Shown here piece by piece: positions 2,041-39,400 of a stretch of DNA of 40,634 nucleotides (position 1 is the first letter of the stretch; each line of letters starts with the position of its first letter). The translations under genes were made by a program, and so were the position numbers. The notes beneath the pieces were generated by a model. The model did no database searches and was not told the origin of the DNA. It was given only the letters and a program-made list of their open reading frames with translations. Origin of the DNA: a bacterium (GTDB taxonomy: Bacteria > Zhuqueibacterota > Zhuqueibacteria > Oceanimicrobiales > Oceanimicrobiaceae); contig JBBIIG010000037.1 of NCBI GenBank assembly GCA_037446635.1, positions 1-40,634 of the forward strand. Reading direction: 5' to 3'.

Positions 2041-2436
2041 TTACTCCCCTGACGGTGGAAGTTGTGAGATGGCGCGCCTGCCGTCTTCGATAAGCACAGC
2101 GGCCAGCTCGTTGAAGTCGAACTTGGTATGTTTGGTGATAAAAGAGAGTAAAATGGAAAGATTGACGCCGGAAATCACCGCTACCTTCTGAAAGTCGCGG
2201 CTGATGCGGGCGGCCACGTTCCAGCAGGTTCCGCCGCGCAGGCAAACCAAAATGAAAAGCCCGTCTTGCAAGTTTTCGCTTTCAATAAGACGGGCGATTT
2301 TTTCGTAGAGTAAATTTGCGGCGACTTGATCGCAATCAAACGCATAAACATTGGGCCATTCGCCGACGATTTTCCGGCTGGCGTCCAACAGCGCCTGCGC
2401 CACCGAGCCGTGGCTTAAAAGTAAACACCCTATCAT
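2041..2436 (-). CDS. PTS mannose/fructose-family EIIA component
   Basis: LLLSHG (phospho-His), GGT and ISGVNL motifs; adjacent to EIIB and hprK. Confidence 0.85.
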   Translation of the reverse strand: MIGCLLLSHGSVAQALLDASRKIVGEWPNVYAFDCDQVAANLLYEKIARLIESENLQDGLFILVCLRGGTCWNVAARISRDFQKVAVISGVNLSILLSFITKHTKFDFNELAAVLIEDGRRAISQLPPSGE

Positions 2437-2445
2437 CGTAGTCGT

Positions 2446-3426
2446 CTATTCAAAATCACGATCCAAATAATAATCCCGATAAACATCGGACGACGATTTG
2501 CGCTGCATTTTTCTGATCAAGCGCTCATTGAATTTTTTCGCCGGATGAACGCCGTAAATTTTGAGGAGCTGATTGAGGGCCACTACTTCTGCAATCACCG
2601 TGATGTTTTTGCCGGGGAAGATCGGCAGTTTGATGAGCGGAATTTCTACTTCCAAAATTTTGGTGGAAGATTCGTCCAGCCCGATGCGCTCGTAGTCGGC
2701 GTCGTCATCCCATTCTTCCAGATGCACCACCACCTCCACTCGCTTCTGCACGCGAATGGCGCGGATGCCAAAGACGCTGTGGACATCGACGATGCCGAGG
2801 CCGCGAATTTCCATGTGGTGCTGCAAAATTTCGCTGGCGGTGCCGATGAGCACGCCCTCGGCTTTGCGGGAAATGTTCACGACATCGTCGGCGACCAGGC
2901 GGTGGCCGCGCTCCACCAAATCGAGGGCGATTTCGCTTTTGCCAATGCCGCTGCGCCCGGTGAAGAGCAGGCCAATGCCATAGACATCCACCAGCGTGCC
3001 ATGCACGGTGACGGTGGGGGCGAATTTGTCGTCCATGTAATCGCTCAAAAGGTGCATGAGGCGCGTGGTTTTGAAGGGGGTGCGAAAAACGCAGATGCCG
3101 CGGGCGTCGGCGCCGCTCACCATTTCCTTCGGCGGCTCGTTGTTTTCCGTAATGATGATGCACGGCAGCTCGAAAGCCAGCACCCGCTCGATGGCGCGTT
3201 TGCGTTCCGCTGCTGACAAGGTTTTCAAATACCCGTGCTCGCTGTTGCCTATGATCTGCACCCGCTGGTAGGTGAAGACTTCCACAAAGCCAGACAAAGC
3301 CAGACCCGGCCGGTGCAGATCGGGTTCGACAATCATGCGCTTGAATCCGCGGTCGCTGTTCAACAACTCCAAACGAAGTTTTTTCTTAAGATCGTTGAAC
3401 AGTTGTTGGACGGTAATGTTATCCAT
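2446..3426 (-). CDS. hprK: HPr(Ser) kinase/phosphorylase
   Basis: HRPGLALSG, Walker A GRSGIGKSE, HRLVADD, MEIRGLGI. Start set at ATG 3426 (MDNITVQQ) to avoid overlap with hpf. Confidence 0.95.
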   Translation of the reverse strand: MDNITVQQLFNDLKKKLRLELLNSDRGFKRMIVEPDLHRPGLALSGFVEVFTYQRVQIIGNSEHGYLKTLSAAERKRAIERVLAFELPCIIITENNEPPKEMVSGADARGICVFRTPFKTTRLMHLLSDYMDDKFAPTVTVHGTLVDVYGIGLLFTGRSGIGKSEIALDLVERGHRLVADDVVNISRKAEGVLIGTASEILQHHMEIRGLGIVDVHSVFGIRAIRVQKRVEVVVHLEEWDDDADYERIGLDESSTKILEVEIPLIKLPIFPGKNITVIAEVVALNQLLKIYGVHPAKKFNERLIRKMQRKSSSDVYRDYYLDRDFE

Positions 3427-13592: not shown

Positions 13593-14443
13593 TTAAGAAT
13601 AATCATAAAAACCGTGCCCACTCTTCCTGCCCAGCCGGCCGGCCGCCACCATCTTGCGCAGCAGTGGACAGGGACGATATTTGTCATCGCCCAAATTTTG
13701 GTGCAACACTTCCATGATGTGCAGGCACACATCCAGCCCGATGAAATCCGCCAGCGTCAACGGCCCCATCGGATGCGCCATGCCCAATTTCATCACCGTG
13801 TCGATGGCCTCTTTGTCGGCTACGCCTTCCATCAAGCAATAGATTGCTTCGTTGATCATCGGCATGAGCACACGATTGGAAACGAAGCCGGGGTAGTCGT
13901 TCACCGCCACCGGCGTCTTTCCCAATTTTTTGCTCAATGCCATGATTGTATCAAACGTTTCGTCGGAAGTTCCAGTCCACGAATTACTTCGACCAAAGTC
14001 ATCACCGGCACGGGATTGAAAAAGTGCATGCCCACGACTTTATCTGCGCGTTTGGTGGCCGCCGCAATTTCGGTGATGGAGATCGAAGAAGTGTTGGAAG
14101 CGAGAATGGTTTCCGCCGGACAAATCTGATCTAACTTTGCGAAAAGCTCCCTTTTGAGCGCGGCGTCTTCGCTGGCGGCTTCGACTACTAACTGGGAATC
14201 CTGCGCAGTTTCCAGATTTAAACTCGGACTAATTTTTTTCAGGGCGGAATCGGCGTCTTTTTGAGCAATGGTTTGCTTGGCGACTTGACGATCCAGATTT
14301 TTTTTGATGGTCGCCAGCCCGCGATCCAGAAATTCTTGCTTGATATCGATCAAGTTGACATCAAATCCGGCCAGCGCAAACACATGAGCGATGCCGTTGC
14401 CCATCGTGCCCGCGCCAATGACGGTGACAGTTTGAAGGTTCAT
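13593..14443 (-). pseudogene. hbd: 3-hydroxybutyryl-CoA dehydrogenase split by a 1-nt frameshift (pseudogene or sequencing error)
   Basis: N-part: VIGAGTMGNG, ASNTSSI, GMHFFNP. C-part: PGFVSNR, HPMGPL..AD.IGLD. Adding one A at 13970-13971 (GAACT to GAAACT) restores [21 protein letters not shown]. Confidence 0.9.
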
Positions 14444-14538
14444 TTTTTCCATCGTGTCCCTTTGTCTAAGAAAACTATTATGTATCCAATCAACGCGATT
14501 ATACCGACAATTAAGGATACAATTGTTAGTTCGCTCAT
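14440..14538 (-). CDS. 32-aa single-TM hydrophobic peptide (not in the ORF track)
   Basis: MSELTIVSLIVGIIALIGYIIVFLDKGTRWKK. GAGGTG Shine-Dalgarno; ATGA overlaps with both the upstream ORF stop and the hbd start. Confidence 0.7.
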   Translation of the reverse strand: MSELTIVSLIVGIIALIGYIIVFLDKGTRWKK

Positions 14539-14741
14539 TTTTGCACCTCTCTTCCATCAATAATAAAGCCCAGAATCCAAATCAAGATTGCAGCTAAGGT
14601 CCCCATAATGATGCCGATCCAATCCACGAATTCCGGCTTAGCAAAAGGCGTGATCACCAAAATCGTAAACATCACTTTACCGATATCCCAAAACAGCTTT
14701 GCCAGATTTTCTTTCTGCTTATCGTTCCGAATGATTCTCAC
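14535..14741 (-). CDS. Small two-TM membrane protein (DUF6722-like from memory)
   Basis: KQKENLAKLFWDIGK followed by two hydrophobic segments; coupled to both neighbours. Confidence 0.65.
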   Translation of the reverse strand: MRIIRNDKQKENLAKLFWDIGKVMFTILVITPFAKPEFVDWIGIIMGTLAAILIWILGFIIDGREVQK

Positions 14742-15435
14742 TTTTTGCCCGACCTTTCAATTCTGCAAACATCTCTTCCATTGGAATTAACTTTGCTTCT
14801 CCCCTTTCAACCTCATCCACCCTTCGCTTCAATTCTTCAAGCTGTTCATTGCGCTGCTGCGGGCCGCCATAAAAAGTTATCTCATACAGCACGGCATCAA
14901 TCACGTCATACACGGTGAAGGATTTCTTGCCCGCAAAAATTTTCCGGGACCGCGGTTTTCGCCGCATGTATTCTTCGATTATGTATTCGGTGTTCAGCTT
15001 AAGGGGATATTTCTTCAGTTTGTTCAACGGGGTGAAATCGATGGCATAAGCTGTTACCCCATCCTTCGCAGCGTAGCCCCTACCGTGAAGGGCCGGCTGC
15101 TCATTGATTATGTTATCTTCACGATCATAATCAACGTGCCAATAAATTTCGAGGAACTCCATGCCATCGTCTTTTTCTTTCACATAAGGTTTCTGCCACT
15201 CTTCATCGAAAACTTTTAAATCATAATGGCCGAGATGCGACGCGAAAAATTCAGAATACTTTTCTTTCTCCCTCATGATATGATTGAAAAAGGTTTTGAA
15301 GGTAGCGCCTTCTTCAATCTCGAGCGGCTCATTCATAAACGGCAGAAAACTCGGCACCGAGATCTTTTTGCGCTCGTACTCTCTCGAATAGAAAATCTTG
15401 CCGTTCTTTTTTAGGAGAATCATTCGGGCGCTCAC
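14719..15435 (-). CDS. Conserved hypothetical protein (possibly DUF6557-like)
   Basis: 238-aa ORF in operon frame, with YAIDFTPLN and LYEITFYG motifs and a helical charged tail. The start may be the ATG at 15423. Confidence 0.65.
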   Translation of the reverse strand: MSARMILLKKNGKIFYSREYERKKISVPSFLPFMNEPLEIEEGATFKTFFNHIMREKEKYSEFFASHLGHYDLKVFDEEWQKPYVKEKDDGMEFLEIYWHVDYDREDNIINEQPALHGRGYAAKDGVTAYAIDFTPLNKLKKYPLKLNTEYIIEEYMRRKPRSRKIFAGKKSFTVYDVIDAVLYEITFYGGPQQRNEQLEELKRRVDEVERGEAKLIPMEEMFAELKGRAKSENHSER

Positions 15436-15438
15436 CTA

Positions 15439-15720
15439 CTAATATACTTCTTCATGAGTGCCAACAGTCTCCAATAAGATTGCGTCCGTCTTTTGATGCT
15501 TCACAAATTTGAAGATGATTCTCAAGTCATAACCAGCACTACACGCCCATGAGCCTTTGTATTTTCCTTTTAGTTTGTGAGTTTTCAATTGTGGATTAAA
15601 TGCATCTTCCTCAAGCATTTCCAAAGTAGCTCGAATATCTTCAGCAACGCGCGACTCTCGTCGGACTGATTTTTTAGCTGCTCGAACAAAAGCGTGGGAT
15701 CGAATTAGTTGTCTTTTCAA
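15439..15720 (-). CDS. Type II TA toxin, RelE/YafQ family mRNA interferase
   Basis: LKTHKLKG, YDLRIIF and C-terminal VGTHEEVY. Confidence 0.88.
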   Translation of the reverse strand: MKRQLIRSHAFVRAAKKSVRRESRVAEDIRATLEMLEEDAFNPQLKTHKLKGKYKGSWACSAGYDLRIIFKFVKHQKTDAILLETVGTHEEVY

Positions 15721-17931: not shown

Positions 17932-18530
17932 TCCATTGAAAACTCAACCAGTCCTTTTTTTACATCGTCCGGGGTGCGAAACAAAATTGCATTCAAACCA
18001 ACTCGCTGCGCTCCGCGAATGTAGTCTTCCCGGTCATCAATAAAAATCGCTTCACTGGGTTTCACGTTGAGCCGCTGCAAAGTTAATTCATAAATTTTTG
18101 CTTCCGGCTTTCTGGTTTTCTCAATGCAAGAGAACGTTGCAACATCGAAAACATCATAATTTTGTGAATTGAAAATTTCCACCGCGGGCAACTCGGTGTT
18201 CGACAGCAAGGCTATCTTATATCCGCGGCTTTTCAAGGTTGTGGCTAATTCAAGCATCTCTGCTTTCGGTGAATAGGCGTGACGAAAGGCCTCTCCCCAA
18301 AGTGAATTTGATTTGGGGATCGCTTTCTTCAAATCAGCGGCCATTGCATTCCACAGCTCGTTTTCTGAAATGTTTCCTTTTTGGAAATCTGCTTCATATT
18401 TTTTGTAAGCGCTGGCAAACTCCGGCTCTTTTACCTGCCAGGCCCGGCTGAGATACGAAAGCATGGGCGGCGCCGGGTCATCAATCAACACGCCGCCCCA
18501 ATCAAAAATGATGGCGCTAATGGTTGGCAT
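17928..18530 (-). CDS. HAD-family phosphatase
   Basis: IIFDWGGVL, LLSNT, RKPEAKIY, FIDD. Confidence 0.92.
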   Translation of the reverse strand: MPTISAIIFDWGGVLIDDPAPPMLSYLSRAWQVKEPEFASAYKKYEADFQKGNISENELWNAMAADLKKAIPKSNSLWGEAFRHAYSPKAEMLELATTLKSRGYKIALLSNTELPAVEIFNSQNYDVFDVATFSCIEKTRKPEAKIYELTLQRLNVKPSEAIFIDDREDYIRGAQRVGLNAILFRTPDDVKKGLVEFSME

Positions 18531-19380: not shown

Positions 19381-19989
19381 CTATTGTTTACGACTAAACC
19401 AGGCTAAGAGGGTCGATTTCAATTCACCAAAGCTCTTATCGCGGCAATTCTTCACGCTGACCGTGGCCGCTAGTTTTGAGTAGATTGCAGAAGATCGTGG
19501 CAGACGAGATTTTTTAAGCACCGCTTCCATAGCTTCCTTAGGATTTATTGGTTTGAAATTAGCATCGCGGTTATACGTTGCGAGTATTGTTTCAAGTTCA
19601 CCCCTGGATACTCCTAAAACTTTGGCCACATTAGTAGAATCCGCCCAAACCCAAACTTCTAGTTCGGGATCCAATACCACAACCTGATTACGCCCGTGCC
19701 AGCCTGATTCATTCAGACGATTCTTTACTTCCTGTCGAAGAATTTGTACAACATCTTGTGAGCCACAACCATCGCGGTCAAACAAGACCAGAGCAAAACG
19801 GTAAAGATGTTGAAATGGTCTCAAAAAATCGTGGCACTTTCTAAAGACTCCGGGATCTCTTTCCGGATGCACAAAAACATCAAATGAAGGCTTAGTAATG
19901 CCAAGTGCGCGTTCTCGCATTAATAATTTCTCAATTGCAGCCTTCATCTGCGTATCTGCAACCAGCACGAGCAAATCTTTCATTTTCAT
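19381..19989 (-). CDS. MAD4-like protein (TOPRIM/DUF4276-like partner of an ATPase)
   Basis: DLLVLVAD, HPERDPG, LFDRDGCG, PELEVWVW, PKEAME resemble MADS Mad4 as recalled; ATGA-coupled to the ATPase. Confidence 0.65.
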   Translation of the reverse strand: MKMKDLLVLVADTQMKAAIEKLLMRERALGITKPSFDVFVHPERDPGVFRKCHDFLRPFQHLYRFALVLFDRDGCGSQDVVQILRQEVKNRLNESGWHGRNQVVVLDPELEVWVWADSTNVAKVLGVSRGELETILATYNRDANFKPINPKEAMEAVLKKSRLPRSSAIYSKLAATVSVKNCRDKSFGELKSTLLAWFSRKQ

Positions 19990-21275
19990 CCTAATACGCC
20001 CGAGGCAAAAAGCACGCTAAGATTAACCTCACCGCGCCAATTTTCCAGCATAGGATGCCGGCTGCCAACAACAATATCCGTCGCTCCGCTGGGAGTCTTG
20101 CCAAAACATAGAATCTGGTCAGGCTGAGCCAGACTGAGAAAGATCGGAGAATGGCTGGCCACTAGCACCTGATGATCGTAAACAGAAGAAAGTGACTGGA
20201 AGACTGCTTCCACCGCTCTTGGATGCAGCCCATTTTCTGGCTCTTCAATCAAATAGATTGCTCCGTCCGATGGTATATAGGCAATCAGTGTCAATGCCAG
20301 CAATCGTAACGTGCCATCAGAAACCAGCCACGACGGAACACGGGTCTTGGTTTGATAGACGACCTCGATGTATAAATGACGATCTTCCGGCCGCTCCTGT
20401 ACCTCGATGGTTTGAATATCGGGTAAGGCAGTTTTAACATGTTCTAGCCATTGTCGGAAACGTCCTGGTTTTTTTTGCAGCTCGCGGATTGCAAGAGGCA
20501 AATTTGATCCATCCGCAACGAAATGCTTAGGCGCCAATGGAGAACACGGCTGTCGCATAGCAAGACTGTTTAAGGCCAAAACCTGTATGCCCTCCATGAG
20601 GAGGCGCTTTGCCCAAGTGGAGATCGGAAATTTTTGTTCATCTTCGGGCAAATTCGCCAGTGAGGATTTCCGGGGACCAAGCCTGAAAAGATTATTCCAT
20701 TCACCGGATTCTGCTTTGAACCAATCGTTGCCCGACTCACTGATCTTATTTACCACCTTCCGCCACCCCGGAGGCGAATGTTTGCGTGGGGCAATTAATA
20801 TGGAATCGACCATTGGAAGCTCGCGAGGAAAAGGCAGGTCCAGCGCAAGCTGGGGATCATTGCTTTCCTCTTTGTGAGAATAACCTTTTTGCACTTGTCC
20901 GTCGGGCTTTAACCAAAAGACTTCATTCAAAAGAGCAGCCTCATCTGTTGAAGAATATCCGATTGCGATCTCATAACGGCATTGTGAGTAAGCGCCATTT
21001 GACCGAGTTGTACATAGTCGATGGGGTATGGATAACTCGATCGCCAATTCGAAGCTGTTTCCGAGTCGGTTCCAAGTCATCTCTTCAAGCGAGCGTGCCC
21101 GCCGGCGAATACTTTCCTCCGGGCCGTGTTTTAGCAAATCACCAACAAAAGAAATGGCATCAAGAAACGTAGTTTTGCCACTTGCATTTGGCCCAATGAG
21201 TAAATTAAACGGAGAAATTTTCTGGCTCAAATACCGCAAAGAGCGATATTTGTGCGCTTCAATAAGGCAAATCAT
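19986..21275 (-). CDS. ABC/AAA_21-type ATPase, MAD3-like
   Basis: Walker A GPNASGKT, SDGTLR signature, Walker B/D-loop LIEEPENGLHP, H-switch ASHSP, C-terminal LFASGVLG. Confidence 0.85.
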   Translation of the reverse strand: MICLIEAHKYRSLRYLSQKISPFNLLIGPNASGKTTFLDAISFVGDLLKHGPEESIRRRARSLEEMTWNRLGNSFELAIELSIPHRLCTTRSNGAYSQCRYEIAIGYSSTDEAALLNEVFWLKPDGQVQKGYSHKEESNDPQLALDLPFPRELPMVDSILIAPRKHSPPGWRKVVNKISESGNDWFKAESGEWNNLFRLGPRKSSLANLPEDEQKFPISTWAKRLLMEGIQVLALNSLAMRQPCSPLAPKHFVADGSNLPLAIRELQKKPGRFRQWLEHVKTALPDIQTIEVQERPEDRHLYIEVVYQTKTRVPSWLVSDGTLRLLALTLIAYIPSDGAIYLIEEPENGLHPRAVEAVFQSLSSVYDHQVLVASHSPIFLSLAQPDQILCFGKTPSGATDIVVGSRHPMLENWRGEVNLSVLFASGVLG

Positions 21276-21290
21276 ATAGATTATCAAACC

Positions 21291-27012: not shown

Positions 27013-27255
27013 CTACAATTCTTCAATAGTTTCAAATTGCGCTTTAATGGGAATAGTTTGTTCCTCTTTTATATCCCCGAATCGCTCTGCGAAATTTAAG
27101 ATCGTGAATCCTACAACTTCATCACTCTCAGGCAAGACACGTACTAAAACATCGTCATCGACTTCTCTGGAAGTAGCCTCTTTTGGCGCACCGATCGAGA
27201 TATACAGAACATCCCCTTTTCGATCGTAAAAAACATTCAAGGGTTCTTTTGCCAT
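27013..27255 (-). CDS. DUF2283-family putative antitoxin
   Basis: YDRKGDVLYI, DDVLVR, VVGFTILNF. Confidence 0.82.
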   Translation of the reverse strand: MAKEPLNVFYDRKGDVLYISIGAPKEATSREVDDDVLVRVLPESDEVVGFTILNFAERFGDIKEEQTIPIKAQFETIEEL

Positions 27256-27300
27256 AAGATTTCACCTGCTTTGATTTTGTCTGTAATATAAAGTGGAAAT
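27238..27300 (-). pseudogene. 3' remnant of the gene normally upstream of DUF2283 (putative toxin)
   Basis: Reads YITDKIKAGEILWQKNP* overlapping the DUF2283 start, with no 5' part. Confidence 0.5.
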
Positions 27301-27305
27301 GAATT

Positions 27306-27485
27306 TTATGAATTGTTGATTTTAGCCTTCTCATTCATAACCTCCAACCACCCCTCAATCACCTCTTTGATATTTTCTTGGGCTTCTTCGAAAGTTTTGC
27401 CCTGACTCAAACAACCGGGCAACGCCGGGACTTCAGCGACGAAGTAACCGGATTCATCTTTTTCGATTATGACATTGAACTTCAT
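27306..27485 (-). CDS. HicB/UPF0150-family antitoxin, orphan (59 aa, not in the ORF track)
   Basis: MKFNVIIEKDESGYFVAEVPALPGCLSQGKTFEEAQENIKEVIEGWL; GGAGG Shine-Dalgarno. Confidence 0.88.
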   Translation of the reverse strand: MKFNVIIEKDESGYFVAEVPALPGCLSQGKTFEEAQENIKEVIEGWLEVMNEKAKINNS

Positions 27486-27503
27486 ATTTCCTCCGCAGGA
27501 AGC

Positions 27504-27758
27504 TTATGATTCCTGAAGCAAGGCTCGTTCAACTTCTTTCGGCACTTCGATTAAAACAAAATATTCGGCGGGATACAAGTAATCCTCGCCGCTTTCATCA
27601 ATCACGCGTAAGTCTCCGTTCTTCGCCGCGTCTTCATCGGGTAACACCCGGTAAATTTTGTGCAATTCCAATGAAGCGGAGGTATCGGAATTATTGATAC
27701 AAACCGCAAATTCGCGGCGGGTGTTTTTACCGAATCTTACGGCAAAATCTGTTTTCAC
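27504..27758 (-). CDS. Small conserved hypothetical protein (TA-like downstream partner family)
   Basis: FAVCINN..ASLE..KIY.VLPD and RVIDESGEDYLYP motifs. Confidence 0.7.
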   Translation of the reverse strand: MKTDFAVRFGKNTRREFAVCINNSDTSASLELHKIYRVLPDEDAAKNGDLRVIDESGEDYLYPAEYFVLIEVPKEVERALLQES

Positions 27759-29952: not shown

Positions 29953-30004
29953 TGACGTGAAATGTGAGATGTTAGAGATGAAATGACAGGGCTAAGGGTG
30001 AAGG

Positions 30005-30110
30005 TGGAGTGATGGAGTAGTGGAGTGTTGGAGTATTGCTAATCCACTAATCCCCCGATCTACGATTCCAAGCTTCAAAACTCCATTACTCCAGTACTCC
30101 ATAACTCCAA
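30005..30110. repeat. Octamer inverted tandem repeats
   Basis: tggagtga tggagtag tggagtgt tggagtat ... ctccatta ctccagta ctccataa. Confidence 0.85.
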
Positions 30111-30142
30111 AGCTGCAACACCTTCGCCTCAACATTAGCCTC

Positions 30143-31843
30143 TCATCGCAAATCCTTAACCCGCAACTGCAGCGATTTTCTTCCTTCCCATTCGTTTTCT
30201 TCGATGACGTACACCATTTGCAGCCCGCGTTCGCCGGAGTTGACACGGTAGGAAAGATCGCCCAAGTTGAAGCCGATGGCATCCATCACAATGCCGTCCT
30301 GCCGGACTTTGAACTTCAAATGGTTTTTGCCCACAATGGTGGGCGTGCCCACCACCTGCAAATCGGTAGAAAGAAACACCGGGCGCATGTTCTGCGGACC
30401 GAACGGCCCCATCATGCGCAGTAATTTCAGGAAATCTCCCTTAAACTCGCTGAAACGCAGCTCGGCATCGATCCACAATTTGGGACTCAAATGTTCGCTC
30501 GTCAACAAGTCATCAGCAACTTGATTGATGGCATCGCGCAGTTTTTGAATTTGCGCGCAAGAAATGGAAAGCCCGGCGGCGTACTTGTGCCCGCCGAATT
30601 CCAGCATACAATCGCGGCATCTATGCAGCGCGTGGTAGATATCGAATCCCGGAATGCTGCGCGCGGAACCACGGCCGCGGCCGGCCTCGGTGGCGATCAG
30701 CACCGTGGGGCGATAATATTTTTCGGCGATGCGCGACGCGACAATGCCAATCACGCCGGGGTGCCAGCCCTCCTTTTCCAACACTAAAACTTTTTGAGTT
30801 TTGAGATCAAATTGCGTTTCAACGATTTCCACCGCCTCCAAAAATGTTTCTTCATCGATGTTGCGGCGGATGCGATTTTCTGATTCGAGGATGGCGGCAA
30901 TATTCTTGGCCTGCTGCTCATCAGTGGTGGTTAACAAACGCACGGCGCGACCAGCGTCGCCAAGCCGGCCCACGGCGTTGATGCGCGGCGCAATCACAAA
31001 CACCACGTGGCCGGTACCGAGCTCTTCATCATGATTAATTCCGGCCACGGCCATTAGCGCGCGCAGTCCCGGATTGGAGGTTTGCTTCAGCCGCTGCAAA
31101 CCGAACTTGACAAAGACGCGATTTTCATCCACCAGCGGCACAATGTCGGCCGAGCTGCCAATGGCCGCCAACTCCAGTGCATTGAGAAAAATTGCCTCCT
31201 CTAAATTGAAACGTGATTGCAGCGCCTGAATCAATTTGAAAGCCACCCCTACGCCGGACAACTCTTTGAAGGGATAGCGGCATCCCAGCTTCTTGGGGTT
31301 GAGAATGGCCACAGCCGGGGGCAATTCGGCGGCGGGTTGGTGGTGATCGCAAACGATGAAATCGATCCCCAACTGCTGCGCTAACGCTATCTCCGCATTG
31401 GCGGTAATGCCGCAATCAACCGAAATGATGAGTGGGTAACCCTGTTGATGCGCGTAACGAATACCCGGCGCCGAGACGCCATACCCTTCCAGCAGGCGAT
31501 CGGGAACGTAAAAATCCACCGGGTGGCCGAGATACTGGAAGAAGCGTAGCAGCATCGCAGTGGCAGTAGTGCCGTCCACGTCGTAGTCGCCGTAGATCAA
31601 AATTTTCTCTTTTTTGGAAATAGCTCTTTCGATACGTTGCACCGCTTCGCGCATTTCTGTCATCAAAAAAGGATCATGCAGATTGGCGAGGTTGGGCTTG
31701 AAAAACTCGCGGGCGGCTTCGATGTCCTCAATGCCGCGATTCAAAAGAATGCGCGCCAGAACCGGTGAAGAGTTGAGTTGTTGGGCAAACTGGCTGATTT
31801 TTTCGGGAGAATGATTGTTGATTAACTGCCAGTTTAATTCCAT
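30143..31843 (-). CDS. recJ: Single-stranded DNA exonuclease RecJ
   Basis: YGDYDVDG, SVDCG, CDHH, PRINAVGR, RGSARS, FGGH. Confidence 0.97.
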   Translation of the reverse strand: MELNWQLINNHSPEKISQFAQQLNSSPVLARILLNRGIEDIEAAREFFKPNLANLHDPFLMTEMREAVQRIERAISKKEKILIYGDYDVDGTTATAMLLRFFQYLGHPVDFYVPDRLLEGYGVSAPGIRYAHQQGYPLIISVDCGITANAEIALAQQLGIDFIVCDHHQPAAELPPAVAILNPKKLGCRYPFKELSGVGVAFKLIQALQSRFNLEEAIFLNALELAAIGSSADIVPLVDENRVFVKFGLQRLKQTSNPGLRALMAVAGINHDEELGTGHVVFVIAPRINAVGRLGDAGRAVRLLTTTDEQQAKNIAAILESENRIRRNIDEETFLEAVEIVETQFDLKTQKVLVLEKEGWHPGVIGIVASRIAEKYYRPTVLIATEAGRGRGSARSIPGFDIYHALHRCRDCMLEFGGHKYAAGLSISCAQIQKLRDAINQVADDLLTSEHLSPKLWIDAELRFSEFKGDFLKLLRMMGPFGPQNMRPVFLSTDLQVVGTPTIVGKNHLKFKVRQDGIVMDAIGFNLGDLSYRVNSGERGLQMVYVIEENEWEGRKSLQLRVKDLR

Positions 31844-32032
31844 TTAGTTGTCCTTCTGAATCAATAAATGACAATTGACCATTCACCATTCACAATTTGC
31901 CGTTTTGCGAAACAGGATGAATTTTGAATTGTCAGCGCGCCCCCTCCCGGCAAAATTCCAAACCCGCCTACCGGAGATCATGGGGGCAGGAAGGCGGAAT
32001 TTGGGGAAAGAAGAATTTGTCTCAAAAAATCC

Positions 32033-32125
32033 AAAGTAGCCCGATAAGCCGAATTCTGTCTTCCCCGCCTGCGTCGGGCAAGCCCGAACAGTCGGGGGAG
32101 GCGACCATTTATCTGGGGCTCGCTG
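32033..32125 (-). ncRNA. rnpB: RNase P RNA, 3' fragment only (3' side of P18, J18/2, P19, and 3' strands of P4/P1)
   Basis: Minus strand CCCAGATAAATGGTCGCC-[P19 hairpin]-ACAGAATTCGGCTTATC matches the conserved 3' core of bacterial rnpB. I did not find the 5' GAGGAAAGTCC motif upstream. Confidence 0.85.
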
Positions 32126-32153
32126 CCGGCGGCGGATTTTGGGGATGATTCGA

Positions 32154-32309
32154 TCAGGTGGGATCTTCATCAACCAGTCCTTTGCATCTTTTCCTTTTCG
32201 CAAGCTTGTTACAGATATTTCCTTTGTTGCCGGAATGATTTATTTTTTTACGCGGGACGCCCAGTGTGCGCAGCAAAGCTTTGTCTGGGTCACATTCGAC
32301 AAATATCAT
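32154..32309 (-). pseudogene. Truncated TOPRIM-like partner of the upstream ATPase (51 aa, not in the ORF track)
   Basis: MIFVECDPDKALL...HSGNKG...GLVDEDPT*, with TOPRIM-like E and DxD; ATGA-coupled to the ATPase. Confidence 0.7.
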
Positions 32310-33283
32310 CCTTCCCCCAGAAAGCGATCCAGGTTGAAAAATACGCTCGCGTCAAGATCGAGGACGGCGGGCATCTCTTCTTCAGTTAGCGCCTTGATTT
32401 TAGTTTGATAATTTTTGAAGTAGGTAATGAAAATTCCAATCTCCGCTTTTGGAGTTTTCTCCAAAACCGAGAGAAGAAAATAGGGATTGTGAGTAGAAAT
32501 AAAATACTGGTTAGAGCCGTCGAGTGCAATTCTCTCAGCTAAGAATTTGGCATAATAGGGGAAGGCGTGGGCTTCCGGTTCTTCAAAAATGAGGATCGAA
32601 TCTTTGTTGGTTTCAATGGCCAAAAAATGAAAGACCACTCGTTGCAGGGTATCCGAAACCAGGGAATAAGGGTAAGAAATAATAACATCCTCAATTTGCT
32701 TCTGAACTTCGATTTTGTGCTCCTGAGGCTTCAAAACCAGTTTGAGTCCGTACTCGCTGAATAAGCCCGCAACAAATTTTCTAATCTCTTTCTTGGTGAG
32801 AAGAATTTGCAATAGGTTATCTCCGGTGATCGGCAAAAGAAAATCCGATTCTGGCCGGCCAAAAGTATTCAAAATTGCAAATCGGTACAGTTTAAAAGAT
32901 GACAAAACTAAAGGCCCATGACTTGTTCTTGACATCACATTTCCATTATAATCCAAATTGATTTCACTTTTGTTCTTTCCGGCACTGTCTTCGAAACTTG
33001 TTTTAAAACTGCCGCTTTCAAATTTTACATTAAAAGAAAAATTATCAGCAATAATTTCTATTCTTTCGGACACCTCCTGATCATAAAAGAGGTTGCCCAA
33101 GTTTTCAAATCGAATCACGTCTTTGAAGTTTTCATTCACGTAGGGCAAAGAAAAAATTCCAACTGCCTCCAACAAGTTCGATTTGCCAACATTGGGTTTG
33201 CCGATGAATAAATTGATCCGTTTGCAGTTTAGTTTCAACTGCTTGATCGATTTGAAATTTTTTATCGTGAGCGTTTTTATCAT
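32306..33283 (-). CDS. ABC/AAA_15-21-type ATPase
   Basis: IKNFKSI, Walker A GKPNVGKS, Walker B ILIFEEPE, STHNP. Start set at ATG 33283. Confidence 0.88.
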   Translation of the reverse strand: MIKTLTIKNFKSIKQLKLNCKRINLFIGKPNVGKSNLLEAVGIFSLPYVNENFKDVIRFENLGNLFYDQEVSERIEIIADNFSFNVKFESGSFKTSFEDSAGKNKSEINLDYNGNVMSRTSHGPLVLSSFKLYRFAILNTFGRPESDFLLPITGDNLLQILLTKKEIRKFVAGLFSEYGLKLVLKPQEHKIEVQKQIEDVIISYPYSLVSDTLQRVVFHFLAIETNKDSILIFEEPEAHAFPYYAKFLAERIALDGSNQYFISTHNPYFLLSVLEKTPKAEIGIFITYFKNYQTKIKALTEEEMPAVLDLDASVFFNLDRFLGEG

Positions 33284-33296
33284 GAAATTGCTTGTT

Positions 33297-33329
33297 AAAA
33301 TTCCGGGGCCTTTAAGACCCCGGAGTTTT
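33297..33329. repeat. REP-like palindrome spanning the stop of the upstream small ORF
   Basis: aaaattccgggg-N9-ccccggagtttt (12-bp stem, one mismatch). Confidence 0.7.
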
Positions 33330-33539
33330 GTCAATTCCCTTCAGCCTTCCGGCAACTTTGGCCAGAGCTTGCTGCCGCGCTTCCTCGCGGGTAGGGCCTT
33401 CGCCGCGGGCAATGGTGGCGCCCGGATCCTGATTTTCTACGTGACAGAAAAACCGCGCGCCAATTTGATAGGTGACGATGCGCACCGGCGCGCCGTTGAC
33501 CGCGCTGGTTTCCTGCTGGAAATTTTCCGCGCGCAGCAT
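33312..33539 (-). CDS. Small hypothetical protein downstream of the sulfurtransferase
   Basis: MLRAENF...DPGATIARGEGPTREEA; starts 2 nt after the sulfurtransferase stop. Confidence 0.65.
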   Translation of the reverse strand: MLRAENFQQETSAVNGAPVRIVTYQIGARFFCHVENQDPGATIARGEGPTREEARQQALAKVAGRLKGIDKTPGS

Positions 33540-33541
33540 GG

Positions 33542-34393
33542 CTAAGCACCTGCGCCTGTTTCCACCGGCGCAGCGACGAGATTGCCCCACTCGGTCCACG
33601 AGCCATCATAATTGCGAACGTTCGGGTAGCCGAGCAAATACTTCAACACGAACCAGCTGTGGCTGGAGCGCTCGCCGATGCGGCAATAGGCGATGATATC
33701 CTTTTTTTCGGTGACGCCCTTGCTTTCATACAACGCTTTCAATTCATCATAACTTTTGAAGGTGCCATCCTCGCGGCAAGCCTGCGCCCAGGGGATATTC
33801 TTGGCGCCGGGGATGTGTCCGCCGCGCTGGCAGGTTTCTGGCAGTCCCGGCGGCGAAAGAATTTTGCCGGTAAATTCGTCTGCGGAACGCACGTCCACGA
33901 GCACTGTTTTTTTAAGCTTGTAGCTTTTTTGTACATCGGGTAAAAAGGCGCGCAAGCTTTTATCCGCTGCTTTGGCAACGTAGTTGGCGCGTCTGGGGGT
34001 GGGAATCTCGGTGCTTAAGGGCCGCCCCTCGGCCAGCCATTTTTTGCGGCCGCCGTCCATGATGCGCACGTCTTTGTGGCGGTAAATTTTGAGTTGCCAG
34101 AATGCCCACGCCGCAAACCAATTGTTGTTGTCGCCATAGAGGATGATGGTGGTATCATTGGAGATGCCGCTGTCGCTCAGCAGCTTTTCCAGATCGGCTT
34201 TTTTGATGATGTCACGGCGCACGGTATCGCACAACTGGGTTTGCCAGTTCCAGCCGATGGCGCCGGGCACGTGGCCCTCCTCGTAGGCTTTGGTATCGAC
34301 ATCCACTTCTACAATCGCCAACCCGCGATCGTTTTTGTGAGCATCCACCCAGTCGGTGGAAACCAGCACTTCCGGATGCGCATAGTTTGACAT
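33542..34393 (-). CDS. Tandem-rhodanese thiosulfate sulfurtransferase (CysA/SseA-like)
   Basis: GHVPGA, GHIPGA, active-site YCRIGERS, NYDGSWTEW. Confidence 0.95.
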   Translation of the reverse strand: MSNYAHPEVLVSTDWVDAHKNDRGLAIVEVDVDTKAYEEGHVPGAIGWNWQTQLCDTVRRDIIKKADLEKLLSDSGISNDTTIILYGDNNNWFAAWAFWQLKIYRHKDVRIMDGGRKKWLAEGRPLSTEIPTPRRANYVAKAADKSLRAFLPDVQKSYKLKKTVLVDVRSADEFTGKILSPPGLPETCQRGGHIPGAKNIPWAQACREDGTFKSYDELKALYESKGVTEKKDIIAYCRIGERSSHSWFVLKYLLGYPNVRNYDGSWTEWGNLVAAPVETGAGA

Positions 34394-34508
34394 GGTTTGG
34401 CCCTCCGCTTAAATTTTAACCATTAAAGTCACGCTACCGTGTTTAAATTAACTTGTCTCTGTGAACTTCCAGTTTCACTGGCAAAATTAATCAAATCCAA
34501 AGAAAAAA

Positions 34509-36257
34509 TCAAATCCGGGCCTGGTAGGTATAAAGCTGATAATATCGTCCTTCTTTTTTTATCAACTCCTCGTGGCTGCCGCGTTCGGCAATTTGCCCGT
34601 CTTCAATGACGAGAATCTGATCGGCGCGACGGATGGTGCTGAGGCGATGGGCGATGACAAACGTGGTGCGGCCTTTCATCAAGCGCTGCAAACTTTCTTG
34701 AATGTACATTTCACTTTCGGTGTCGAGGTTCGAGGTGGCTTCGTCGAGAATGAGGATTTTGGGATTAGCCAAAAGCGCGCGGGCGATGGCCACCCGCTGG
34801 CGCTGGCCGCCGGAAAGCTTCACGCCGCGCTCGCCGATGAGCGTGTCAAGTCCGTCGGGGAAACGGTCGGTGAACTCCTTCACGTGAGCCGCGCGGGCGG
34901 CTTCCAGCAATTCCGCTTCGCTGGCGTCGGGCTTCCCAAAAAGTATATTTTCGCGAATCGTGCCCTCGAAAAGAAAATCGTCTTGCAGCACCACCCCCAG
35001 CCGGCTGCGGTAACTATCGAGCGTGACTTTTGAGAGATCTTTTCCATCAATTTTGATGACGCCGCTGATCGGCTTTAAAAACGTGGCGGCGAGTCCGGCG
35101 ATAGTGGTTTTGCCGGAGCCGGAGGTGCCCACCAGTGCGGTCATGCTGCCGGCGGGCGCTTTAAAACTGATATTTTTCAAAACTTCATTTCCCGGCTCAT
35201 AGGAAAATGAAATCTCCTCAAACTCGACGTCACCTTTTATACTGTTAAGTTGAATCGTTCGCAGCGCGTCGTCGGTTTCACGCGGCGAGTTCAAAATTTC
35301 CTCGGTGCGATCGAGTCCCGCAAACGCTTCCGTGATCTGGCTGCCGATGTTGCTCATCTGCACGATGGGCGCGATCATGAATCCGAGATAAAGTGTGAAC
35401 GCAAAAAAATCGCCGATGGTCATCTTGCCTTTGATGATCAACGAGCCGCCGACGCCCATGATGCCCACGCTGGCGATGCCCAAAAGCAGCGTCGCTGCGC
35501 TGGTGACGAAACTGGTGGTTAGCAGCGACTTTCGCACATTCTTGAACAGGCGCTCAACGCCGCTTTCAAAAACCTTGATTTCATACGACTCGGCGTTGAA
35601 GCCTTTGATGACGCGAATGCCGCCGAGGGACTCGGTAAGCCGGCCGGTAACTTCCGCGTTGATTTTTCCCCGTTCGCGGAAAATCGGGCGGATGTATGAA
35701 AAGGCTTTGAGGGAGATCAGTCCGAAGATGGCCAGCGGCACTAACGTGTACAGCGTCATCAGCGGGTTGATTTTAATCAGCAGAAAAAACGCCACGATTG
35801 CGGTGAGTACGCCGCCGAAAAGCTGAACCAATCCCGTGCCGACGAGATTGCGCACGCCCTCGACGTCGGTCATGATGCGGGAGACCAGTTCGCCGGACTT
35901 GGTGTTGTCGAAAAATCGCACCGGCAAATAAATGATATGCCGCTGCACCTGCGCCCGCAGCACGGAGATCAAATGCTGCGCCTCGACGCTGAGCAGTTGC
36001 GTGAGAAAAAACGAGCTGACAGCTTGAACCGTGATTGCAGCGCCGACCGCAATCAACAACCATTTGAGCAAATTCAAATTCGATTTGGCGATGACTTCGT
36101 CAATCAGATATTTGCTTGAGCCGGGAAGCACCAGTCCCGACAAACGATTGATGACGATCAGCACCAGTCCGAGCAGCAAAAGATTTCGCCTCGGCCAAAT
36201 GATGTTTTTGAAGGCGTAACGGACGGTGGCGAGAGAGGGTTTGGGTTTTTTGTTCAT
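34509..36257 (-). CDS. ABC exporter, fused permease/ATPase (MsbA/multidrug-like)
   Basis: Multi-TM N-terminal domain; GTSGSGKT, LSGGQRQR, ILILDEATS, IAHRLST. Confidence 0.95.
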   Translation of the reverse strand: MNKKPKPSLATVRYAFKNIIWPRRNLLLLGLVLIVINRLSGLVLPGSSKYLIDEVIAKSNLNLLKWLLIAVGAAITVQAVSSFFLTQLLSVEAQHLISVLRAQVQRHIIYLPVRFFDNTKSGELVSRIMTDVEGVRNLVGTGLVQLFGGVLTAIVAFFLLIKINPLMTLYTLVPLAIFGLISLKAFSYIRPIFRERGKINAEVTGRLTESLGGIRVIKGFNAESYEIKVFESGVERLFKNVRKSLLTTSFVTSAATLLLGIASVGIMGVGGSLIIKGKMTIGDFFAFTLYLGFMIAPIVQMSNIGSQITEAFAGLDRTEEILNSPRETDDALRTIQLNSIKGDVEFEEISFSYEPGNEVLKNISFKAPAGSMTALVGTSGSGKTTIAGLAATFLKPISGVIKIDGKDLSKVTLDSYRSRLGVVLQDDFLFEGTIRENILFGKPDASEAELLEAARAAHVKEFTDRFPDGLDTLIGERGVKLSGGQRQRVAIARALLANPKILILDEATSNLDTESEMYIQESLQRLMKGRTTFVIAHRLSTIRRADQILVIEDGQIAERGSHEELIKKEGRYYQLYTYQARI

Positions 36258-36325
36258 GGGTGAGAAATATAAGGCTCTTTAGTTCAAATTCACAAATCTT
36301 TTGGGAGAGACCTTTCCTCAGATGC

Positions 36326-36375
36326 TGGATTAATGGATTAATGGATCGATGGAGTTTATTTTCCATCAATCCATC
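36326..36375. repeat. Octamer inverted tandem repeats (short)
   Basis: tggattaa tggattaa tggatcga tgga ... tccatcaa tccatca. Confidence 0.7.
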
Positions 36376-36443
36376 AGCTTCGTAAACAGCTAAACAGTAC
36401 GTATCGCGGAAGTTGCTGCCTCAAAACTCGTGAGCGTGCAAAG

Positions 36444-39400
36444 TCAGAACGCCTGCTCAAACCCAAACACCCAGCGAAACCGCACGGCATTTTCATCCGG
36501 CAGCGGGCGATTCACCCAGATGGGAAAATCGAGGCGCAGGGTGGTGTTGCGGCCGCCGGTAAAAATGGTGTACCAATCATCGGGCAGAACGTTCTCGAAG
36601 CGCAGCCCGAAGCCGGCGTCCGCAAAAAGCTTGTGGCTGAAATCGAGAAATTCCATCGTGGCCACGTCAGCAAAGATGGCCAGACTAGGTTTGCCTAAAA
36701 TGATGCGCATCGTTTTACCCAATAAATCTGACGCGAGGTTTTTCCGCAGCTCGCCATTGACCGCAAGCATCTGATCGCCAAAAATCGGCTGGTTGTAATA
36801 CCCGCGCAGGGTGCCGCCACCGGGCAAATGATAGTGCAGTTCCTCCGGCAGCGCGCCGTCGCTGCGCAGATAAAATTTTTGAAACCGCTCGCGAGGATTG
36901 GCGCCATCCAAAAACAGCAGGTCTTGAATGAAAGCGTCATCGGAGCTGAAAATTTTGCCGGCAAAAAATCGCAGAAAAACTCCTTCGTCATTTTTAGGAA
37001 ACCACACTTTCAACTCCGCAAACCCGGAATGGTAGCTGACGTCGCTGCCCCAGTCTTCATCAACCAAATCCAAACCCAGTGTAATATTGGTAAACCACGC
37101 CAGTCCTCTTGGATTCACGCCGTAACGAAAATAGAGATTGTTCACGTCGCCGCGTTCCCAGGTGGCCAAAGCAATGTCATTTTTTTGATCGAACTCGCGC
37201 CGTACGTAGCGCTCGCCATCTTTTATGAGTTTGGAATGATTGAAGCCAACGATGATCTGATGCAGCGGCGGATGTGCCAAATACTTTCTTTTCAGCAGCG
37301 TGAGATGGGCATCGATCTCAAATCGCCCCTCCATTTTCTGGGCGCTGAAGGCGCCGCGCACGCCCGGCCCCAGCGGTGCAATGGGATTAGAATAGCTGAA
37401 GCGCGCGTCCAACTCCCGCGACTCGGTTCCGAACCATACGCCGAAATAAGCGTTGCGCGTCGTGCCGTAATAACTTTTGAGTCGTCCGCCGATCCGCAGC
37501 TTGTCAACTTCATTAAACCAAAAACTCGGGCGATAGGTGATGACGTAGGCATCGCGGGGATAGTAACTCATGTTGGGGTATTCAAACAAAAAACGAAATC
37601 TTAGGGGATCTTGATTCCAGCGCGACTTGTCGAGAATCGCGTCGCGCGGATCGAGAATCACCTTTGCCGGCTTGCCGGTGGTTTGAAACGCCACCGTCCC
37701 GATCTCGCCCTTGCCATCCCAGCGCTGAACCAGGCTGTCGCCGGTTTGGGTGATTAACAAAACTTCCACCGGGATGATGCCGCGGTCGCGGCGCTGAACT
37801 TCCACTTTGGTTTCCCAACCCTCCGCGGTTTGCCGTTTGCTGACGCGGTCCAAAGAATAATCAACGTTGACCGAATCGTGCAGCCACTGCTTGAAGAACC
37901 AATCCAATTTCTGGCCGCTAACGTCTTCGCACACCTGTCGGAAGCGCGCCTCGTTGACGTGCTTGAACGCCCAGCGCTTGAAATACTCCCGGCAAATTTT
38001 TTCAAACGTGGAGTCGCCGACCACGTATTTGAGCATATCGTAAAAGAACGAGCCTTTGTCATACGCATTTCGGCGATACGAAATGCTTTCGTTGAAACGA
38101 TACGCGGGCCGCGACATCGGTTCATTGTTCCCGGAAGTGAGATACGCCAGCAGCTGGTTTTGATTCTCTTCGCGGCGGGTGAGCCGCGGACGCCGGCGCT
38201 GCAGCCAGTTGGCGTGCTGCAGCTCAGCCTCACTATCCCACCCCTGCTGGCCGTAGCGCGTCTCCATGTACCAGCGGGTTTGAAAGGTGGTGAAGCCTTC
38301 GTCCAGCCACGCTTCCTTCCATTCGTTGTTGGCGAGAATGCCATAAAAATAGATGTGACCGACTTCGTGCAAAACCAGACCTTCGCTTTCACGGGCGTTC
38401 ATCACCAACATCGGATATTCCATTCCACCACTTAGCAAACCGTGTGCGATGGTGAGCTGCGGATACGGGTAGCGCCCAAATTTTTCCGAGAGCCAGGCCA
38501 GCGCCCGGGCGCCGTGCCTGGCCGCGGTTTTGCTCCAGCGGTTTTTGGCGTACGAGCGATACAGCACGTGAATTGGGATGCCGTCCCATTCTCCGCGCTC
38601 GTATAAAAAGTCTGGACTGGTCACCCAGGCGAAATCGTGCACGTTTTCTGCGTGAAAAGTCACCGTGCGAATCTTGCCATCCTTCGCATCTTCGGCGACG
38701 GTTTTCTGAATTTTCTTGAAGGTTTCCTGCCACTGCGCATCCGAAAGCGAAGTGTCAACGTTCACGCGCTCCCAGCCGGGGTCGCCGGCGGACACCACAC
38801 CGGTTGCACCCACCACGTACTCGTGCGGCACGTTGATGGTGACGTCGAACGTGCCAAACTCGCCGTAAAATTCGCCGGTCAAATGGAAGGGCTCGGCGTT
38901 CCAGCCGGTGTCATCATAAACGCAAACTTTGGGATACCACTGGGCGAAGTCGTACTGAAAGCCGCGGTAGCCGGCGCGCTCCTGAAATTTGCGGACTTTT
39001 AAATAGAACGAAAGCTCGACCGTCAGCTCGCCGCCCGGCGGCAGCGGCTCCGGGAGGCTGGCTTCGAGAATGGTGTCGTTGATTTGAAATGCCGTCACCG
39101 ATTTTTCGGTGGAATCGTGGCTCAAAATGCGGAAGGACTCAATGTTGAGATAGCCGGCGTCATCGGGATTCGCCAGCAATTTGCGATACTCGCGCCGCGC
39201 CTCTCGCGCTTTGATGGTTTCGTTGCTGCGAAAGGCGTTGGGATAGAGATGGAGATAAAATTTGTGCAGGGTGTCCGGCGAGTTGTTTTTGTAAACGATT
39301 TTTTCTTCGCCACTCAGGGCGTGCTCAATGGGGATGAGGGTGATGTCCATCGTGTAATGAACGAACTGCTGCCAGTAGGGCGGTTCGGAGGCGTGTGATT

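Follow-up and report, generated by a model that had tools for sequence, protein, structure and literature searches.

Islands placed in RNA genes by an integrase leave a restored gene together with a displaced 3' fragment of that gene. Tyrosine integrases are said, after Williams in 2002, to make islands and prophages at the 3' ends of tRNA and tmRNA genes. A different kind of event, insertion with long target duplication, was reportedly described for the first time by the group of Furuta et al., in Helicobacter pylori. In the accessible text of their 2010 study (PMC2853133), restriction-modification units are inserted with a long target duplication, most such cases being found in naturally competent species, and a cycle of release and re-entry is proposed for these units, the release having no experimental evidence there. 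A further RNA target of integrases, ffs (4.5S RNA), is given in the accessible part of PMC12540744. The other described processes considered here, again from the accessible parts of the papers, are a DNA duplication associated with inversion in H. pylori (PMC4671568), homology-facilitated illegitimate recombination (PMC3240628) and transformation-induced merodiploidy (PMC3784515).

The stretch analysed here (the window, 40,634 nt) is contig C37 of a draft genome, G000, which comprises 110 contigs and 4.64 Mb and is 97% complete; the coordinates of its features are given in Table 1. As had been predicted from the sequence, the window holds an rnpB 3' end with an intact extended P19 hairpin upstream of recJ: the fragment matches contig C69 (17727-17837) at 96.4% over 112 columns, and its P19 is identical to that of the full gene. 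The block of exact identity measures 94 bp (window 32117 to 32024, C69 17744-17837), and the four differences (three substitutions and one extra base) all lie within the 5' 18 columns. The original prediction had the fragment end at about 32125; the fragment is real, but its limit was misplaced, similarity reaching 32135.

With the covariance model RF00010 (gathering score 100), the expected match to 32033-32125 was obtained, although weakly (32029-32191, 15.6 bits, E 0.03); the aligned part takes in the final conserved block, the region of P19 and, of P4 and P1, the 3' strands. No match in the whole window reached the gathering score, and the same search bore out the absence of a 5' part of rnpB from the window. 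At the level of the whole genome, a complete class A rnpB was found at C69:17418-17832, with 270.9 bits, the only other matches being two of 8-9.6 bits with E above 1. The fragment is the duplicated 3' end of this intact gene. For a functional class A RNase P RNA, the whole model exceeds the gathering score in the C69 copy and stays below it in the fragment; the fragment contains none of the 5' three quarters of the RNA, and we predict that it has no function as RNase P. The long P19 has the same sequence in both copies and forms a hairpin when the 3' part of the full gene is folded, whereas the fragment folded by itself adopts a different structure. Concerning P18, the C69 gene (L001:1808-1828) has a C-A mismatch, with the A common to both G000 copies, where the metagenome locus L143 has a C-G pair.

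The neighbourhood of rnpB was compared in the best 30 of 37 full-length matches outside G000. The synteny of rnpB and recJ, a check suggested at the outset, held throughout: recJ lies 3' of rnpB in 30 of these 30 loci, and a zinc-ribbon gene precedes rnpB in 29, the exception being a truncated locus. Between the rnpB end motif and recJ there are 40-197 nt in the 29 loci that have the motif, and 202 nt in G000. A second ancestral order is proposed from a single genome of the same genus, G001, in which the rhodanese gene, a 95-aa orf and an amidohydrolase gene stand side by side and the ATPase and its partner are missing. No rhodanese gene was found within 1.5 kb of the amidohydrolase gene in the loci of five other genomes of the family, so that this adjacency would be a genus-level one. 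In G000, C69 reads zinc-ribbon gene, rnpB, BrnT, CopG-type antitoxin, half gene, amidohydrolase, and the window reads rhodanese, orf, AAA ATPase, half gene, rnpB end, recJ. In G000 as assembled, the downstream halves of the two ancestral loci have been exchanged.

Table 1. Features around the rnpB 3'-end copy (window positions unless a contig is named)
Feature	Position	Strand	Remarks
recJ	30143..31843	-	ancestral downstream neighbour of rnpB
Spacer between rnpB end and recJ	31844..32023	-	strong hairpin and short heptamer repeat; on the long side for the family but still in the range of relatives
rnpB 3'-end copy	32024..32135	-	from within P18; takes in P19, the 3' strands of P4 and P1, and a short T run
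Spacer, 18 nt	32136..32153	-	probable right-hand end of the cassette now on C69
Antitoxin last bases and stop (32156-32154)	32154..32158	-	would complete the C69 antitoxin, joined at base 18313
Breakpoint CA dinucleotide	32159..32160	-	repeated at C69:18314-18315; net 2-bp duplication
TOPRIM-like gene, first 50 codons to DEDP motif	32161..32309	-	partner of the ATPase, about 150 aa
TOPRIM-like gene, remainder	C69:18314-18610		one frameshift
OLD/AriA-like AAA ATPase (AAA_15, AAA_21)	32306..33283	-	about 40% G+C
Orf, 95 aa	33312..33599	-	directly before the amidohydrolase gene in G001
Rhodanese-type sulfurtransferase	33542..34393	-	left flank of the second ancestral locus

The heptamer-type repeat upstream of recJ (31858-31900) has many look-alikes in the genome. 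Promoter-like sites numbered 6 vs. 2.4 expected, none of them informative, and terminator-like sites were at chance level.

A direct switch from the rnpB fragment to a TOPRIM-like pseudogene had been proposed. The gene does adjoin the fragment, but a stop codon (32156-32154) and the 18-nt spacer (32153-32136) intervene; likewise, the gene is disrupted, but mere decay does not describe it, since the frame is open over codons 1-50 and the other half is located on C69. Among the best 80 of the 87 loci fetched with the ATPase, the window half was matched in 39, the C69 half in 48 and both in 37, and loci matching both halves carry them as one single gene of about 150 residues. Codon 50, at the DEDP motif, is the last of the window half, and the C69 half starts one or two codons further on; joining window position 32161 to C69 position 18314 yields a three-residue spacing between DEDP and QP, as in 26 of 30 homologs. 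Judged by sequence, the two halves are one gene that has been physically cut, beyond decay. As for the label, E5, D47 and D49 are invariant in 27 homologs, and we take the glutamate near the N-terminus (E5) and the DxD (D47/D49) to be TOPRIM motifs, by which the name appears to be backed. Searches of the gene against Pfam, PADLOC and the PDB gave no match, or none meaningful; its Atlas features resemble those of DUF4276 clusters, and a plasmid search with its C-terminal half found none. Another AAA ATPase with a partner, HEC-01/mad3-mad4-like according to PADLOC, was seen in an acyl-CoA operon of the window (19381-21287). Elsewhere in the window (13593-14560), a 3-hydroxyacyl-CoA dehydrogenase is read in two overlapping frames of 208 aa (NAD-binding) and 116 aa, which suggests a frameshift.

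On C69, a BrnT toxin gene (PF04365) stands 3' of rnpB and is followed by a CopG antitoxin gene (PF12441). This arrangement, a BrnT gene and then a ribbon-helix-helix antitoxin gene, is that of a BrnT-type type II toxin-antitoxin pair. Of the two genes, the toxin gene loses its reading frame beyond about codon 67, and the stop of the antitoxin is missing on C69. If C69 18313 is joined to window position 32158, a stop comes immediately after antitoxin codon 80, and the 80-residue product ends 5 residues past the W..RL motif, as do 92 of the 117 homologs with this motif (120 listed). Undoing the swap restores both the TOPRIM-like frame and the 80-residue antitoxin, with two identical bases (CA) left over; since the joins are complementary and CA remains, both junctions are attributed to one reciprocal event with a net duplication of 2 bp. 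The order then becomes rnpB, toxin, antitoxin, stop, 18-nt spacer, rnpB end, recJ, with a cassette that would measure about 0.5 kb.

A comparable arrangement in cis was found in a metagenome scan for the rnpB end of the family, which returned five loci, three of them near-identical. In L143, the closest of the five to G000 (84% identity for RecJ and 78% for the zinc-ribbon protein), the order is rnpB, a HepT-like gene, a nucleotidyltransferase gene, a 33-bp rnpB end and recJ (reverse strand, about 2320-3040), the rnpB end starting three bases past the nucleotidyltransferase stop. This cis example is one of five, on one contig; the remaining four loci have an empty site. As both the cargo and the fragment length of L143 differ from those of G000, the two are regarded as separate insertions without a common boundary. 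The long P19 of both G000 copies is missing in G001 and L143, and its species-specific sequence was not found in the metagenome contigs searched, from which near-identical records may be missing.

A 15-mer of the rnpB end occurred at least once in 148 of 167 genomes of the phylum and twice in two of them. The second copy in G037 was rejected as a chance match inside a phage-tail-like gene; the site (L136, G037:C111) belongs to a phage-tail-like cluster that by eye resembles a contractile injection system. Within the phylum, a duplicated rnpB end therefore appears to be rare, with one true case among the 148 genomes carrying the motif. A 21-mer at the P1 end was present as one copy in each of 44 other genomes out of 125, two of these 44 matches being off the rnpB position found with the 15-mer; the phylum tallies include as single-copy rows two unpublished genomes, G158 and G162, from which no other result is drawn.

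Gene ends duplicated next to small cassettes are not confined to rnpB. A census was made in G000 of 3289 ORFs of at least 130 codons, with partial copies of 40-500 bp located 0.2-6 kb away. Copies of 3' ends were found 13 times downstream and twice upstream of the gene, copies of 5' ends eight times upstream and once downstream, while mid-gene copies showed no bias (15 vs. 14); no gene-end copy was on the opposite strand. Once two paralog ends are removed, 11 truncated 3' copies remain at 10 protein genes, as direct repeats in cis; the genes include hemB, mdh, gdh and purine nucleoside phosphorylase (names by eye from sequence). In a Pfam search of 45 of the 147 candidate frames from these regions, families of toxin-antitoxin type were found between gene and 3' copy at 8 of the 10 genes, namely ParE, BrnT/BrnA, TumE, AbiEii-like, DUF433/DUF5615, DUF4160/DUF2442 and DUF2283; the DUF pairs (DUF433/DUF5615 and DUF4160/DUF2442) are presumably toxin-antitoxin-like. 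No recombinase gene was found inside these cassettes. Fragment lengths vary, from 53 to 335 bp at the ten protein genes and 112 vs. 33 bp at rnpB (G000 and L143), which is unlike a fixed att site. In two of the copies, many differences fall, by eye, at multiples of three, as would be expected of two working alleles and not of decay.

The cassette sites are on contigs C1, C3, C4, C8, C11, C13, C28, C29, C46 and C61 (tandem cassettes at C46:25697-26493 and C3:77867-78812, for instance), and the 5'-end cases on C5, C9, C34 and C50, with two stacked rounds in C13 and C5. Small toxin-antitoxin-like genes also stand between metabolic genes of the window at 14719-15720 and 27013-27758 (addiction-module, RelE-like by eye, DUF2283). 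On separate contigs, C60:20444-20732 and C80:17326-17614 share a 289-bp copy (98.6%) of the 3' end of a long gene; the copy adjoins small toxin-antitoxin-like genes and may be another split or a large insertion. Finally, an orphan 186-bp 3' end of yqeY is present on C103 (L160:4626-4815), between a truncated subtilisin-like gene (by eye) and a truncated NAD-binding gene in opposite orientation, the full yqeY with its ancestral neighbours being on C101; with this end so far from its gene, ectopic insertion does occur in G000.

We favour, with somewhat better than even confidence, an integrase-free insertion of the cassette at rnpB with target duplication, followed by an inversion that cut the TOPRIM-like gene. 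First, a BrnT/CopG cassette of about 0.5 kb, linked to a copy of the rnpB end, would have recombined into rnpB to give rnpB-cassette-rnpB end-recJ. The route was probably RecA-type recombination with DNA that would have come from a close relative, because the long P19 is common to both copies and lacking in G001 and L143; uptake is a candidate, the genome having one comEC gene. Second, a reciprocal non-homologous exchange would have fused the TOPRIM-like gene, from codon 51 on, to the last antitoxin codon and duplicated 2 bp. This exchange is most simply an inversion, since directly oriented sites would split a circular chromosome, and two breaks repaired by Ku-type end joining are a candidate cause, one Ku gene being present. 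The swap itself is there in the assembly; what brought it about we infer. GC skew, weak here and confounded with gene strand, seems discordant on one flank in a small sample and is no guide for or against an inversion.

Compared with the units in the accessible text of PMC2853133, the rnpB case shares a small selfish unit, long direct repeats of variable length, no mobility gene and an empty site in relatives, and comEC is present in G000, most of the published cases being in naturally competent species. The duplications of 112 bp in G000 and 33 bp in L143 both exceed the 30 bp used there; the insert, about 0.5 kb when the swap is undone and presumably so in its original state, is far within 20 kb and holds no other mobile element; and rnpB and recJ, 40-197 nt apart, form the empty site in G001 and in 28 further loci. 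As far as that text goes, the differences are the cargo, a toxin-antitoxin pair (HepT-like and nucleotidyltransferase genes in L143) in place of restriction-modification genes, and the target, the 3' end of rnpB. Direct repeats in cis, also part of that definition, flank the insert in L143 and in the 11 copies at 10 protein genes, whereas in G000 they lie on two contigs, the unit having been split by the exchange. The rnpB case is a variant of insertion with long target duplication and not a member, because its cargo is of toxin-antitoxin type and its repeats no longer flank the cassette. In the literature searched, outside which most subscription journals lie, nothing relevant was found on rnpB as an insertion target.

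As in the accessible account of duplication and inversion in H. pylori (PMC4671568), a duplicated segment stands at both ends of the presumed inversion; unlike there, the duplication is best read as predating the exchange, given the cis example of L143, and the breakpoints are outside the repeat. The events of PMC3240628 and PMC3784515 resemble the first step in being integrase-free, anchored by homology and dependent on uptake, with a possible duplication, and are candidate routes for it; toxin-antitoxin cassettes at gene ends were not seen in the accessible portions of these two papers.

It is possible, though we hold it doubtful, that the locus is a fossil of release and re-entry, in which a circle of one rnpB end and one toxin-antitoxin pair was excised via its flanking repeats and went in again at another site, duplicating 2 bp. 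In a fuller form, which we consider rather unlikely, such a circle entered the TOPRIM-like gene with its 2-bp duplication, and homologous recombination between the rnpB ends then inverted the DNA. Exactly the two observed junctions would result, the duplicated CA would be easily understood as a target duplication, recombination across the repeat would account for the perfect identity over 94 bp, and an ectopic orphan gene end is known at C103. Yet it takes one step more than insertion at rnpB followed by inversion, and for a circle with about 110 bp of rnpB, return to rnpB should be much more frequent than entry at a non-homologous site.

The 94-bp run, longer than the longest in the 11 tandem copies (about 50 bp, by eye), would agree with a recent recombination event between the repeats, and also with a cross-join by the assembler. 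Under the latter, which we judge unlikely, the cassette and the rnpB end would sit inside the TOPRIM-like gene, the true genome would have rnpB beside recJ, and the swap of flanks would be an artefact at the 94-bp repeat; uncrossing does restore both ancestral orders, and the copies are on separate contigs of a 110-contig draft, with no read or independent contig bridging either junction among two sequencing runs and the metagenome contigs. The reads of these two runs, which contain 0.15 of the words searched for, are over 30000-36500 short low-depth pieces from a related strain, the nearest of which covers 31520-32041 and then stops. The ends of the window contig have no link to other contigs, and C69 overlaps at its end with the beginning of C97. 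Against a cross-join, the assembly passes 18 exact repeats longer than 94 bp (of 34 interior repeats of at least 70 bp), and a 114-bp repeat between contigs, a single control, was resolved in the ancestral order rpsU-yqeY-cvpA-mutS2, cvpA following yqeY in G000 and in 11 of 13 relatives. Moreover, a cross-join would leave the fragment and the cut gene as real features and would not do away with the need for an illegitimate insertion.

Very unlikely, in our estimation, is an attR scar of an rnpB-targeting element whose integrase has since been lost. The original prediction had offered an att scar or a rearrangement: a duplicated 3' end beside the ancestral neighbour recJ is indeed present, while an integrase element targeting rnpB is not supported. 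Likewise, the full copy sharing a 3' block, which it had proposed to seek genome-wide, was found, but with no recombinase at either the window or the C69 junction. The geometry is that of tRNA and tmRNA islands, with the essential RNA gene intact and a displaced 3' fragment next to the former neighbour. It departs from them in having no integrase within or beside the insert (97% complete draft), in a crossover point that is not fixed (112 vs. 33 bp, two cases only), and in a cargo of just about 0.5-0.65 kb whose footprint recurs at ten protein genes. Three tyrosine recombinases were found in G000: a XerC-like gene in the window beside topA, 27 kb from the junction, a XerD-like gene on C1 (by eye) and an intact integron integrase near a contig end on C9 (L156:1267-2301, TIGR02249, 485.7 bits). 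The last was set aside because the spacer has, by eye, no likeness to attC; no match to a serine recombinase was found in the genome. Integrases are also absent from the L143 insert and the other cassettes, the 5' boundaries of the two rnpB cases differ, an attP search of viral contigs with the exact family pattern of the rnpB end gave no match, and the reciprocally cut gene would go unexplained. As for an RNase P RNA split into two pieces, or a gene decaying because HARP has replaced it, both raised initially and favoured by nothing more than the intact sequence of the fragment, they have practically no probability left and are ruled out by the complete rnpB (270.9 bits) with no lone 5' piece in the genome, the presence of rnpA and the lack of any match to the HARP family PF08745 in G000, the same search being positive in 4 of 14 control genomes. 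Only with C69 as a contaminant would this verdict change, at a genome contamination of 0.3% and with the zinc-ribbon-rnpB order of the family on C69.

The feature is real and is best read as a cassette that was inserted without an integrase, at an unusual target, and was split by a single, one-off rearrangement. RNase P biology is unaffected by the fragment, and orphan rnpB 3' ends call for a whole-genome search before a split RNA or a HARP replacement is claimed. For the lineage, rnpB emerges as a possible site at which toxin-antitoxin cassettes land without an integrase, seen in two members that differ both in cargo and in the length of the duplication, and the same footprint is found in one genome at ten protein genes. 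The base-exact reciprocal junctions would be a record of cassettes turning into breakpoints of chromosome rearrangement. If the circle reading were true, the toxin-antitoxin pairs of this lineage would be mobile units travelling on borrowed gene ends, for whose mobility host recombination would suffice and which their own toxin would guard against loss.
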